DNA of 64,000 nt from positions 385,029 to 449,028 of the forward strand of contig CAVXQJ010000016.1 of NCBI GenBank assembly GCA_963763745.1. Direction: 5' to 3'. The stretch is from an uncultured delta proteobacterium. GTDB lineage: Bacteria; Myxococcota_A; Polyangia; Polyangiales; Polyangiaceae. Position numbers and translations under genes: made by a program. The notes beneath the pieces were generated by a model, which had not been told where the DNA came from, made no database searches, and saw only the letters and a program-made list of their open reading frames with translations. Positions 23,689 to 30,438 of this stretch are shown here, piece by piece (position 1 is the first letter of the stretch; each line of letters opens with the position of its first letter).

Positions 23689-24306
23689 TTAGAGCGTGAG
23701 CACACCCGCGCGCAAGAACGCGAAGAGCGAATCGACGATGTCATCCTCCGAGTCGTCCCACCCGCGCACGACGACTTGGTTCATCACTTCCTTCAGCGCG
23801 CCGATGATGAAGATCGCCTGAAGACGCGCTTCGCCTTGGACGACGATGCCGAGCTCCTGCCCATCGACGAGGCTCTCCTCGAGGAGCGATCGGACTTGCT
23901 CGAAGAACGAATGAATCTTCCGATCGAACGCGGGGTCCACGCCGTGCGCGTCGGAGAGGAGCATCTTGGTCGTGAGCTTGTCCTCGAGGAGAAGATGAAC
24001 GATGCGCCGGATGTTCGAGCGCACTTGATCGGTCACGTCGCTCGCCACGTCGACGCGCTGAATCGCCATGCCGAAGCGCACGAGGAGCCGGTCGACGATC
24101 TCCTCGAAGATGGCGCGCTTGTCCTCGAAGTAGAGATAGAAGGTGCCGCGCGCGACGCCCGCCGCGTTGACGATGTCCTCGATTTTCGCGGCGTGATAGC
24201 CGTGCTTCGCGAAGACGTCGCGCGCCGCTTGGAGGATTTCCTGCCGCCGAGTGGCTTTGGCGCTCTCGAGGGTCTGCTGACGCTTGCGTTCGGCGGGCTG
24301 GGTCAC
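23689..24306 (-). CDS. TetR-family transcriptional regulator
   Basis: HTH ...RRQEILQAARDVFAKHGYHAAKIEDIVNAAGVARGTFYLYFEDKRAIF. GTG start at 24306 proposed; track ORF runs to the ATG at 24438 through a repeat-derived low-complexity peptide. Confidence 0.75.
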   Translation of the reverse strand: MTQPAERKRQQTLESAKATRRQEILQAARDVFAKHGYHAAKIEDIVNAAGVARGTFYLYFEDKRAIFEEIVDRLLVRFGMAIQRVDVASDVTDQVRSNIRRIVHLLLEDKLTTKMLLSDAHGVDPAFDRKIHSFFEQVRSLLEESLVDGQELGIVVQGEARLQAIFIIGALKEVMNQVVVRGWDDSEDDIVDSLFAFLRAGVLTL

Positions 24307-24310
24307 GAGG

Positions 24311-24431
24311 GCTTTGGGGGTTGGGCTTTGGGCTTTGGGGAAGAAGAAGACGAGAGGAGTGTAGCTGAACCCGCGAAAGATCCCGTCTTCTCTCCTGCCA
24401 AAGCCCGAAGCCCAAAGCCCAAACCCCACTT
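24311..24431. repeat. large inverted repeat built from tandem heptamers (GGGCTTT x4 ... 57-nt spacer ... CCAAAGC x4) in the divergent TetR/activase promoter region
   Basis: Left arm 24311-24340 gctttgggggttgggctttgggctttgggg; right arm 24398-24430 ccaaagcccgaagcccaaagcccaaaccccac (reverse complement of the left arm). Confidence 0.6.
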
Positions 24432-24509
24432 TACCCATTGCTCATCCGTGCAGCCACACGTAGCCTCCTCTCGACTGACACGTCAGTCAGTCGTCAGGGA
24501 GGTCTCGGA

Positions 24510-28220: not shown

Positions 28221-28225
28221 ACGCG

Positions 28226-30067
28226 ATGAACGGCAAGAAATCTCTCCCCCTCATCAACTCGAAGGGCTCGTCGGAAATCGACATCGAGGCGGAGCTCGCG
28301 CGCTTCGAAGAAGAAGAGCGCAAGCGCCTCGGCATCGACGACAAGATCGATCACTGGACCGACAAGATGGTGGGTCTCGACTTCAAGAAGAGCGAGAAGC
28401 CGAACATCACGCTGATCATCGGCGGGCTCACGATGATTCAAGACACGCTCATTGAAGCCGCGCTGAAGGGCCTCGGTTACAACGTCGAGCACATGGACTC
28501 GCCCAACACCGAGGCGTTCCAAACCGGAAAGGAATACGGCAATCGCGGTCAGTGCAATCCGACGTATTTCACCGTGGGCAATCTCGTCAAAACGCTCATC
28601 GACCTACGCGACAAGAACGGTTTGACGAGCGAAGAGGTCATCAAGCGCTACGTGTTTTTGACGGCGGGCGCGTGCGGGCCGTGTCGATTCGGCATGTACG
28701 TGACGGAGTATCGCAAGGCGCTCCGTGACGCGGGCTTCGACGGATTCCGCGTCATGCTCTTCCAACAAACGGGCGGATTGAAACAAGCGACGGGCGAAGA
28801 GTCGGGCCTCGAGATGAACCCCGCGTTTTTCGCCGGGATCGTGAAGGGCGTCATCGCCGGCGACGTGCTCAACGCGATTGGCTATCGCCTTCGTCCTTAC
28901 GAAGTCGAAGAAGGCGCGACGGATCGCGCGCTCGCCGCCGTCAAACAGAGTTGCTACGACGCGCTCAAATCGCAAAAGAGCGTTCTCTGGGCTTTGATGC
29001 GTTCGAAGAAGCATTTCGCATCGGTCAAAGTCGATCGCATGAACCCGAAACCCAAAGTGGGAATCATCGGCGAGTTCTGGGCGATGACGACCGAGGGCGA
29101 CGGCAATTATCAATTGCAGCGCTTCCTCGAGAGCGAAGGCGCCGAGGCCGACATTCAGCTCGTGACGGCGTGGCTCCTCTACAACATTTGGGAAGCCAAA
29201 CACGACACGATGGACCGCGAGCAGCTCCGCGGAATGGACAAAGCCAAGTCGGGTCTCGAGGGCCTCGGCCCGTGGGGCGCCATGAAGCGCGTTGCCGCCG
29301 TCAGCGCGGGCGAAGTCGCCGTGCGCACGATCTTCCAGACCTTCGCGCACGCGGCGGGCCTCTACGGCTATCACCTGCCCGACATGAACAAGGTCGCGAA
29401 GATCTCGCACGAGTATTACAACAACAACCTCCGTGGCGGCGAAGGCCACATGGAAGTCGGCAAGCTCATCATCAACGTGCTCGAGAGCAAATGCCACATG
29501 ACGCTCAGCGTGAAGCCCTTCGGCTGCATGCCGAGCGCGAGCGTCTCGGACGGCGTGCAGAGCGCCATCGTCGAGAAATTCCCCGGAACCATCTTCTGCC
29601 CGGTGGAGACGAGCGGCGACGGACGCGTGAATTTTTATTCGCGCGTTCAGATGTACTTGTTCAAGGCGAAGCAGGCGGCGATCGCCGAGCTCGAGCGCGC
29701 ATACACCGAGCACGGCGTGACGCAGGAACAAGTGAAGGACTTCCTCGACAAGAACCCGCGCTACGCGAGCCCGCTCCACAAGGCGCCGCACAAGTACGCG
29801 GGCACGGGCGCGGACCTCATCGCGGAGATCGCACCGATGATCAAGCTCTCGCGCGCGGAGCGCATTCGCGCGCGCATCCTCGGCGCAGCGAAGAAGACGC
29901 AAGACACGGCGAAGAACGCGCCGCACGTCGTCGTCGAGCTCTTCAAGAGCGTTCGCGAGCAAGCTCCCGCGATCGCGTCGCGCGTCAAAGAGGACATCAC
30001 GATCTTGCGCGAGCAGCGCAAAGCGAAGAAGAGCGCGCCGGCTGATTTGTCCGCAGCCGCCGAATGA
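28226..30067 (+). CDS. 2-hydroxyacyl-CoA dehydratase family protein (HgdB/HgdA D-component-like)
   Basis: 616 aa; recognised as HgdB/HgdA D-component type from the overall translation; partner of the upstream activase, as in yjiL/yjiM-type pairs. GTG 28217 overlaps the upstream stop (GTGA); first ATG at 28226. Confidence 0.75.
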   Translation: MNGKKSLPLINSKGSSEIDIEAELARFEEEERKRLGIDDKIDHWTDKMVGLDFKKSEKPNITLIIGGLTMIQDTLIEAALKGLGYNVEHMDSPNTEAFQTGKEYGNRGQCNPTYFTVGNLVKTLIDLRDKNGLTSEEVIKRYVFLTAGACGPCRFGMYVTEYRKALRDAGFDGFRVMLFQQTGGLKQATGEESGLEMNPAFFAGIVKGVIAGDVLNAIGYRLRPYEVEEGATDRALAAVKQSCYDALKSQKSVLWALMRSKKHFASVKVDRMNPKPKVGIIGEFWAMTTEGDGNYQLQRFLESEGAEADIQLVTAWLLYNIWEAKHDTMDREQLRGMDKAKSGLEGLGPWGAMKRVAAVSAGEVAVRTIFQTFAHAAGLYGYHLPDMNKVAKISHEYYNNNLRGGEGHMEVGKLIINVLESKCHMTLSVKPFGCMPSASVSDGVQSAIVEKFPGTIFCPVETSGDGRVNFYSRVQMYLFKAKQAAIAELERAYTEHGVTQEQVKDFLDKNPRYASPLHKAPHKYAGTGADLIAEIAPMIKLSRAERIRARILGAAKKTQDTAKNAPHVVVELFKSVREQAPAIASRVKEDITILREQRKAKKSAPADLSAAAE

Positions 30068-30438
30068 TCATGAAGCACGCTGTCGTCGTCTTCTTGGCGG
30101 CGACGGCGTGCATGTCGCAGGCGCAATACGCCGAGCAGCGGCGAGCGGATTTGCTCGCTACGTATCCGCTCGGCATCACGGAGAACGAAGTCGTCAAGCG
30201 CATCGGGCGCGAGCCCGACTTCATGGAGCCGATGCGCGCGAGCGGTTGGCGCTCGGGTTGGATTTCGGCGCGCGTCCAAACGAGCGAGCAACGCACGGGC
30301 AAACGCGTGTGGAAGATGGACGCCTACGACCTCACGGGCTGCGGCTCGTCGAGCCCGCTGTCGCTTTGCCGCGCCTATTTTTTTCTCGACGAGCACGATC
30401 AAGTCGTCGACGTCGAGTGGCAGTACCGGAGCGACTGA
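30064..30438 (+). CDS. small lipoprotein (lipobox AATAC), third gene of the activase operon
   Basis: 124 aa; ATGA overlap with the dehydratase gene. Confidence 0.5.
   Translation: MIMKHAVVVFLAATACMSQAQYAEQRRADLLATYPLGITENEVVKRIGREPDFMEPMRASGWRSGWISARVQTSEQRTGKRVWKMDAYDLTGCGSSSPLSLCRAYFFLDEHDQVVDVEWQYRSD

Follow-up and report, generated by a model that had tools for sequence, protein, structure and literature searches.

A PlsA/PlsR-like operon from an uncultured Polyangiaceae bacterium as a candidate ester-to-ether lipid reductase

A three-gene operon is described here from an uncultured, Polyangiaceae/Sorangiineae-type myxobacterium, on a stretch of 64,000 nt of contig CAVXQJ010000016.1 (the window, in whose coordinates all positions are given). 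Its three open reading frames (ORFs) lie on the plus strand and are referred to as gene 1, gene 2 and gene 3. Judged by sequence comparison, the closest CHARACTERISED relatives of the first two are PlsA and PlsR, and not YjiL/YjiM or HgdABC, and the pair very probably belongs to the PlsA/PlsR-Ger family. By the same measure, the operon encodes a diverged representative of an already known enzyme kind, and not a new kind of system. With a likelihood somewhat better than even, it encodes an oxygen-sensitive reductase that would turn glycerolipid esters into ethers. An original prediction, made from the letters of the window, had proposed a Myxococcota-type host and an ATP-dependent, iron-sulfur (Fe-S), electron-injecting system of the activase and 2-hydroxyacyl-CoA dehydratase (HAD)/benzoyl-CoA reductase (BCR)-like superfamily; both proposals hold. 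It had also considered the substrate unknown, which is too pessimistic, given that each protein can be aligned over its length with its counterpart in the characterised PlsA/PlsR pair, whose genes stand in the same order.

In Clostridium perfringens, PlsA (CPE1195) and PlsR (CPE1194) constitute the anaerobic plasmalogen synthase (Jackson et al. 2021, as described in PMC9702350, PMC12838417, and PMC8788747). Ger, the glycerol ester reductase, yields alkyl ethers, and is represented in Thermotoga maritima by Tmari_0479 and in Desulfatibacillum alkenivorans by SHJ90043 (Sahonero-Canavesi et al. 2022, PMC13159169). For both PlsA/PlsR and Ger, the literature describes two activation domains, a DUF2229 domain, and a second reduction/dehydration part; according to the literature, an alkyl ether product cannot be told from an alkenyl one by sequence. 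‘Ger homologues’ have been reported in deltaproteobacteria, Bacteroidota, and 61 of 347 Black Sea Myxococcota metagenome-assembled genomes (MAGs).

The Clostridium reference locus was retrieved with the published C. perfringens plsA forward primer, used as an exact DNA pattern. Its two ORFs, of 975 and 420 aa, jointly span exactly the published 4199 bp (CPE1194/1195), and the 420-aa PlsR falls in the same 90%-identity cluster as BAB80900.1 (CPE1194) of C. perfringens strain 13. In BLASTP, residues 9-1132 of gene 1 align with residues 5-972 of Clostridium PlsA (30% identity, E 2e-139), and residues 53-482 of gene 2 align with residues 12-412 of C. perfringens PlsR (BLAST, 23% identity, E 4e-26). 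The window operon and plsA/plsR are collinear, with an identical gene order. The features of the locus are as follows:

23689..24306, minus strand: divergent TetR-family repressor, 205 aa from GTG 24306
24473..24488, no strand: putative TetR operator, palindrome GACTGAC-AC-GTCAGTC, in a conserved intergenic block
24510..28220, plus strand: gene 1, plsA-like, 1236 aa (ORF, Pfam and NCBIfam matches, BLASTP to PlsA)
24531..25499, plus strand: gene 1, ASKHA activase domain 1, aa ~8-330 (Pfam BcrAD_BadFG stretches, PlsA alignment)
25629..26414, plus strand: gene 1, ASKHA activase domain 2, aa 374-635 (best Pfam stretch, HgdC match)
26517..26609, plus strand: gene 1, Cys4 linker, C670-x2-C673-x3-C677...C700 (cysteines invariant in both clades)
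26874..27905, plus strand: gene 1, DUF2229 domain, ‘Red1’ in the PlsA literature (Pfam PF09989)
27906..28217, plus strand: gene 1, charged helical, Pro-rich C-terminal tail, aa 1133-1236 (the PlsA alignment stops at aa 1132)
28226..30067, plus strand: gene 2, plsR-like, 613 aa, predicted second HAD/BCR-like Fe-S module, ‘Red2’ (ORF, PlsR BLAST)
28382-29671, plus strand: gene 2, homologous core, aa 53-482, with N- and C-terminal helical extensions on either side
30064..30438, plus strand: gene 3, orphan ORF specific to this genome, 124 aa; the N-terminus resembles a signal peptide and has Cys16

The three ORFs and the divergent TetR ORF are those first proposed, including the 1236-aa ORF with two ASKHA activase domains and DUF2229 (confirmed by Pfam), those of 613 and 124 aa downstream of it, and the repressor (Pfam TetR_N). 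An overlap between the start and stop codons of genes 1 and 2, also proposed, does not exist with the ATG of the 613-aa protein: the TGA of gene 1 (28218-28220) and this ATG (28226) leave a 5-nt gap. Placing the start at an alternative GTG (28217) would make the two genes overlap, but both the database protein and the proteins homologous to it begin at the ATG. Genes 2 and 3, overlapping through an ATGA, are the only overlapping pair of the operon.

Several features are shared with PlsA/PlsR: a two-gene operon in the same order, the combination of two ASKHA domains, a Cys4 linker and DUF2229 in PlsA, 11 + 3 cysteines that are kept in the window pair, and the lack of any PF06050 match above the cut-off. 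The public name ‘2-hydroxyacyl-CoA dehydratase’ is found on both systems. Nevertheless, gene 1 is longer by 260 aa (insertions and the helical/Pro-rich tail) and gene 2 by 190 aa (N- and C-terminal helical extensions), gene 2 carries the additional conserved cysteines C150 and C458, and the pair belongs to a sister clade. The window operon also has a FadR-like TetR with its own putative operator, whereas strict anaerobes are reported to lack a TetR at the pls locus, and its host is an aerobic-type soil myxobacterium. Compared with Ger, for which only descriptions were used, the BBD core, that is, two BcrAD_BadFG domains (PF01869 x2) plus DUF2229 (PF09989), is common to both and of the PlsA family, but Ger is a single polypeptide, whose C-terminal part has small HGD-D/DUF2229 matches, while the second module of the window system is a separate gene with no Pfam match. 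Further counterparts by description are Acid_0922/Acid_0921 of Solibacter usitatus, of 1188 and 589 aa, with 30.2% and 20.9% identity to PlsA/PlsR (Halamka et al. 2022, PMC10087280, Table S5). These ‘PlsAR homologues’ have been proposed to perform the ester-to-ether step in the synthesis of brGDGTs (branched glycerol dialkyl glycerol tetraethers) in an aerobe (PMC10087280). Like the window pair, they bear adjacent locus tags, belong to an aerobic soil bacterium, and have near-equal sizes and identities to PlsA/PlsR; they originate from another phylum, and size and identity suggest, by themselves, a shared clade.

Gene 1 consists, in order, of ASKHA ATPase 1, ASKHA ATPase 2, the Cys4 linker, DUF2229, and a helical/Pro-rich tail. 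It matches Pfam BcrAD_BadFG (4.1e-66) in three stretches spanning the two ASKHA domains, Pfam DUF2229 (PF09989, 1.3e-51) over aa 789-1019, and, above the cut-off, the NCBIfam domain model CoA_E_activ, ‘acyl-CoA dehydratase activase’ (3.2e-52). Its sequence relatives in the PDB are the activators HgdC, HadI, MbdQ/P, and DCCP-R. ASKHA domain 2 matches HgdC (1hux_A) at 4.1e-24, and its C501/C540 align in the 1hux alignment with C127/C166 of HgdC, which we take to be the ligands of the bridging [4Fe-4S] cluster in the HgdC structure. In ASKHA domain 1, C158/C197 are invariant and stand 39 residues apart, the spacing of the HgdC ligands; this domain also holds an acidic insertion of ~27 aa (aa ~119-151), which is missing from Clostridium PlsA. 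In total, 11 cysteines of gene 1 (C158, C197, C501, C540, C670, C673, C677, C700, C842, C890, and C1085) are invariant in 14 out of 14 aligned BBD proteins, in which both clades are represented. Those of the Cys4 linker, kept across both clades, including Clostridium, Listeria, Collinsella, and Fusobacterium, likely form an extra metal or Fe-S site. Three others, C842, C890, and C1085, are the invariant cysteines of DUF2229. The C-terminal tail (aa 1133-1236) has no counterpart in Clostridium PlsA.

Gene 2 belongs to a family without a model. Neither the single sequence nor, against the PDB, a 38-sequence profile provides any Pfam, NCBIfam or PDB sequence match. Its assignment nevertheless relies on two lines: the BLAST match to PlsR and the predicted fold, whose only significant matches are HAD, BCR, and DCCP catalytic subunits, with HadC as the best Foldseek match and BzdO and MbdO also present. 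Based on this model, gene 2 is placed in the 2-hydroxyacyl-CoA dehydratase/benzoyl-CoA reductase/double-cubane superfamily. Of the domains for which a check had been suggested (PF01869, PF09989, and PF06050), BcrAD_BadFG and DUF2229 are, thus, found in gene 1, while PF06050 (HGD-D) is matched by neither protein at E<0.01; the proposed HgdB/HgdA-family subunit stands at the level of the superfamily, as seen through fold and PlsR BLAST, but not as a PF06050 member. The family is large, with at least 8000 database proteins scored, of which the best 120 are 65-100% identical and many of these from Joint Genome Institute (JGI) metagenomes, and with 1882 representatives in a library clustered at 50% identity. 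All the cysteines expected as Fe-S ligands are present in both proteins. In gene 2, C110, C153, and C434 are common to PlsR; C150 is kept in most of the wider family but missing in the PlsR of Clostridium, Fusobacterium, Listeria, and Collinsella, which have three cysteines, and C458 is confined to the Myxococcota-like subclade. An hhalign comparison of the gene 2 family (70 sequences) with the DUF2229 region gives a weak local match (E 0.0086, probability 5%), not significant alone, that pairs C842 with C110 and C890 with C153; with a shallow profile of the gene 2 family, hhalign finds no match to this region.

These results bear on the reading suggested by the names, namely a genuine 2-hydroxyacyl-CoA dehydratase with a fused activator, of the HgdABC/HadIBC or YjiL/YjiM type, acting on a CoA thioester in amino-acid or organic-acid catabolism. 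The public annotation is ‘2-hydroxyglutaryl-CoA dehydratase’, the activase domains match HgdC and HadI, and HadC is the best Foldseek match of gene 2. The same name, though, sits on the experimentally proven C. perfringens PlsR, and therefore carries no weight. PF06050 is found in neither protein, the gene 2 profile detects no HAD chain among PDB sequences, and no CoA-transferase, acyl-CoA or fermentation genes occur around the window operon or in any related locus that was scanned. This reading is, overall, improbable. The likeness to YjiL/YjiM, part of the original prediction, is rejected: E. coli YjiM scores strongly with PF06050 (6.7e-122) and has no similarity to gene 2 (E 2.4).

Even less probable, to the point of being very unlikely, is a dearomatising reductase similar to class I BCR. 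It would account for the matches to BcrA, BcrD, and BzdQ in NCBIfam and for BzdO and MbdO among the fold matches, but the NCBIfam scores (108 vs 578, 86 vs 380, and 74 vs 313 bits) are far under the curated cut-offs, no aromatic-degradation genes lie nearby, and a BBD fusion replaces the four separate subunits. More generally, HgdABC/HadIBC, YjiL/YjiM, class I BCR, and DCCP/DCCP-R share with the window system the superfamily, ASKHA activators with two cluster-ligating cysteines, and ATP-driven low-potential electron transfer. They differ in that the activators of the window system are fused in tandem to a catalytic domain; in addition, the window pair has no PF06050 match and no CoA-ester metabolism genes nearby. 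As regards DCCP, the PDB sequence searches showed no DCCP homology of the catalytic subunit, and gene 1, as a fusion, leaves no separate homodimeric reductase.

Genomic organization indicates that genes 1 and 2 are the two parts of one enzyme. They are adjacent in every locus examined, namely in four Myxococcota loci, in a Flavobacteriales MAG, in Brevibacillus laterosporus, and, with the order reversed, in a 4.7-Mb genome. The two also occur naturally fused, in either order: the BBD is followed by the gene 2 module in P0130, and the gene 2 module by the BBD in P0188. A third fusion, P0127, joins the gene 2 module to Fer4_20, Pyr_redox_2, and ferredoxin domains, a module of the NAD(P)H/FAD/Fe-S donor type, and plausibly an NAD(P)H-linked electron donor; this fits a net consumption of electrons. 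The two proteins have also co-evolved, as neighbour-joining trees of both modules are congruent and each split into two clades. Clostridium, Fusobacterium, Listeria, Collinsella, and Haliovirga make up the ‘classical’ clade; the second groups the window pair with other Myxococcota, Brevibacillus, Flavobacteriales, and the fusion proteins. Gene 2 family matches to Clostridium PlsR are at ~23-25% identity in all 224 listed. This low identity, together with the tree position, makes the window pair a family member outside the characterised clade.

The gene neighbourhoods of the second clade vary. In B. laterosporus B9 (NZ_CP011076.1; positions 5352-10524 of locus L010), the counterparts of genes 1 and 2 are 67% and 55% identical to them, on a stretch for which the plasmid table has no gene rows. 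The classical PlsAR pairs of Firmicutes are all far more distant from the window pair, a pattern suggestive of horizontal transfer from one soil phylum to another. Upstream of the B. laterosporus pair are lanthipeptide dehydratase genes, and downstream are genes of the diacylglycerol (DAG)-kinase, monogalactosyldiacylglycerol (MGDG)-synthase, and lysophospholipase types. In the Flavobacteriales MAG (L008), the pair is followed at 9709-11571 by a 620-aa B12-binding radical SAM protein, for which no lipid radical SAM family scores above the cut-off, with weak sub-threshold lipid/hopanoid matches. In another locus (L007), a CMAS-like methyltransferase is found at 6136-7143, upstream of the pair. 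Both could be lipid-tailoring partners in these distant members of the clade; genes of these two types are missing from the window.

The regulator constitutes a further line of evidence. The TetR protein matches Pfam TetR_N (1.7e-17), and its best NCBIfam model, at 2.9e-18 over nearly the whole profile, is the Bacillus-type FadR, with 66 bits vs a cut-off of 200. Its best PDB matches are 5gpa/5gp9 (7.7e-17), followed by B. subtilis FadR 3whb/1vi0 (3whb over aa 17-181). By these matches it is a TetR-family, FadR-like protein, but not a FadR equivalog. Bacillus-type FadR proteins are long-chain acyl-CoA sensors. Orthologues with 75% identity and 192-203 aa are divergent to the operon in three related Myxococcota loci (L003, L005, and L006), and in Pendulispora (L004) an orthologue with 61% identity lies one gene further off. 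The 249 aa first assigned to the protein are reduced to about 205, from GTG 24306, on the basis of the intergenic alignment, the length of the orthologues, and the non-coding-like G+C content at third codon positions (GC3) of the extra 44 codons (0.66 vs 0.85).

When the four intergenic regions (window, L003, L005, and L006) are aligned, a single block, GACTGACACGTCAGTCA, is invariant, the remainder having diverged. This block holds the 7+7 palindrome (24473-24488), located 21 nt upstream of the gene 1 ATG, beside a GGGAGG ribosome-binding site. It occurs as a single exact copy in the window, and once at the equivalent site in each of the three other loci; in Pendulispora, a copy with three mismatches is found upstream of gene 1. 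The palindrome is a putative operator, to which the TetR protein would bind. With the conserved synteny and this invariant element, control of the operon by the divergent TetR, as the original prediction had it, is very likely. A sigma-70 promoter scan of the region gave no match, which is uninformative for a myxobacterium. A TetR gene, EF1326, also flanks the pls genes in E. faecalis, and a TetR stands beside the pls gene in Collinsella, of the classical clade; the latter was rejected as an orthologue, having only the helix-turn-helix in common with the window TetR (31% over 51 aa), and is analogous.

Between tetR and the putative operator, at 24299-24437, lies a ~140-nt palindromic element made of GGGCTTT heptads. 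Its arms of 57 nt are 75% complementary, with a 25-nt core at 92%, and its fold reaches -74.4 kcal/mol (z -5.0). The motif has no further occurrence in the window, and the element is missing from the intergenic regions of L005 and L006. It could be an insertion of the miniature inverted-repeat transposable element (MITE) or repetitive extragenic palindromic (REP) kind, and accounts for the 44 codons by which the TetR ORF is falsely extended at its N-terminus.

From cofactors and oxygen sensitivity to substrate, product, and repression, the scheme that we infer for the enzyme is the following. The two fused ASKHA ATPase domains would form an intramolecular pseudo-dimer, bridged by a [4Fe-4S] cluster on C158/C197 and C501/C540. 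A donor of the ferredoxin or flavodoxin type would reduce gene 1, and ATP hydrolysis would drive low-potential electrons, possibly through the Cys4 linker, into a catalytic module formed as a HAD-like alpha/beta pair by the DUF2229 domain (three cysteines) and the gene 2 protein (four or five cysteines). There, as has been proposed for PlsAR, a membrane glycerolipid would have its sn-1 acyl ester reduced in two one-electron steps, protonated, and dehydrated, giving a vinyl ether, or reduced further to an alkyl ether. The FadR-like TetR would bind the palindrome upstream of gene 1 and be released by a fatty-acyl ligand.

The reading as an ether-lipid enzyme is favoured because of the homology, the FadR-like regulator, the donor fusion of P0127, and the glycerolipid neighbours in Brevibacillus. 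The main competitor, appreciably less probable yet worth serious attention, keeps the superfamily and the ATP-driven electron injection but assigns them to another substrate or chemistry, such as a different acyl ester or thioester, an intermediate of secondary metabolism, or the reduction of a small molecule in the manner of DCCP; the PlsAR homology would then be no guide to the product. It fits the position of the window pair in a clade that is sister to all characterised members, at 21-32% identity, and also C150, general in the clade, and C458, of the Myxococcota-like subclade, which together suggest a differently ligated cluster. DCCP and BCR subunits fit the gene 2 fold about as well as HadC, the neighbourhoods vary (B12-radical SAM in Flavobacteriales, methyltransferase in L007), the hosts are largely aerobic, and the window proteins have long tails. 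On the other hand, in the literature found, BBD proteins with DUF2229 are linked only to ester-to-ether lipid conversion, and every catalytic-module cysteine common to PlsA/PlsR is retained in the window pair; the FadR-like regulator and the glycerolipid neighbours in Brevibacillus also speak for lipids. Finally, according to a second-hand report, the co-occurrence of the Ger homologue with Tes accompanies brGDGT (ether) production in S. usitatus, while an acidobacterium with Tes only makes tetraesters.

Some of the same observations weigh directly against ester-to-ether reduction. The identities to the characterised enzymes are 30% and 23%, vs 41-55% among the latter, and in the neighbour-joining trees the window pair stands outside their clade. 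No lipid genes are found beside the operon in the four loci with gene maps (L003-L006), and the lipid context of Brevibacillus comes from one genome, with gaps of 0.6-0.9 kb between the genes. The hosts are mostly aerobes, and myxobacteria already own the aerobic ElbD/CarF/Agps routes to ether lipids. C150, C458, and the long tails might point to another type of cluster or to another partner.

Bacterial ether lipids, such as plasmalogens, alkyl glycerol ethers, and the brGDGTs used as palaeoclimate proxies, are widespread in soils, and the enzyme that forms the ether bond in aerobic producers is unproven. The window locus is a clear representative of the PlsA/PlsR sister clade, whose members are uncharacterised. 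One tentative view, rather unlikely at present, is that the pair represents a distinct, abundant ‘soil/aerobe’ PlsAR-like clade, with Myxococcota, Brevibacillus, and Flavobacteriales as members and probably Solibacter usitatus, in which the four-cysteine cluster site of the PlsR-like protein and the added tails may let ester-to-ether reduction proceed in microoxic, or even oxic, cells. The long-sought ether-forming step of aerobic ether and tetraether lipid (brGDGT) producers would in that case come from this clade, and myxobacteria would gain a second, low-oxygen ether-lipid route, under a fatty-acyl-sensing repressor. The presence of such homologues in Myxococcota and in aerobes was already known at the screening level. 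The two-clade structure of the family, the recognition of the PlsR equivalent, the full set of conserved cysteines, and the candidate operator are new here, as are the corrected TetR start and the dismissal of the ‘lipoprotein partner’ presented below. As the gene 2 family is invisible to Pfam and NCBIfam, homology screens overlook the PlsR-like partner despite its adjacency, or give ‘no PlsR’ or ‘second reduction domain absent’ as their outcome. The public names, ‘2-hydroxyglutaryl-CoA dehydratase’ and ‘sugar kinase/HSP70/actin superfamily’, are misleading. With cultured hosts (Pendulispora brunnea, P. rubella, and Brevibacillus laterosporus) and a candidate repressor-operator pair, the hypothesis is directly testable.

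Gene 3 is translationally coupled to gene 2 (ATGA), and its G+C content by codon position, 0.60/0.46/0.84, is coding-like and resembles that of genes 1 and 2. It is a predicted lipoprotein, on the basis of its N-terminus. No homologue but itself was found among 5.8 billion proteins, and no counterpart exists downstream of the operon in the four Myxococcota loci with gene maps (L003-L006). As a genome-specific orphan, it is rejected as a conserved partner of the enzyme, and the unusual lipoprotein partner first proposed falls away.

The DNA on both sides of the operon shows a few further features. Upstream, the window has an insertion of about 5.3 kb (~18400-23689) by comparison with related genomes: the immediate neighbour of tetR in L003, L005, and L006 has its window orthologue at 17761-18400, on the minus strand, with 70-80% identity. 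The inserted stretch has a lower G+C content (0.59-0.61), and its long ORFs (e.g., 19266-21401, 711 aa) have no Pfam match and a weak coding composition. Downstream, a tRNA-like element at 30504-30574 (plus strand) lies between the operon and a major vault protein (MVP) gene. It scores 53.4 bits with the Rfam tRNA model, is missed by ARAGORN at default settings, and is called tRNA-Arg(CCT) at a relaxed threshold; with an acceptor stem that looks degenerate, it may be a pseudo-tRNA or an integration-site remnant marking the start of non-syntenic DNA. Further away, at 56653-56745 (plus strand), ARAGORN gives a tRNA-Thr(CGT) of 93 nt, an unusual length, which a Rfam gathering-threshold scan of the whole window does not report; the call may be spurious, or the tRNA may carry an insertion. 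At 34762-36492, on the minus strand, lies an ORF for a Ser/Thr protein kinase (Pfam Pkinase 1.5e-15); a kinase is also found near the operon in L006, and this is probably myxobacterial background. The MVP gene itself, at 30660-33341 (plus strand), encodes an 893-aa, near full-length homologue of the eukaryotic protein, with a GC3 of 0.85 and matches to Pfam MVP_shoulder (4.8e-17) and Vault_3 (4.9e-7). It aligns over aa 312-828 with aa 275-810 of rat/human MVP in the PDB (E ~1e-24), and is the sole member of its 90%-identity protein cluster.

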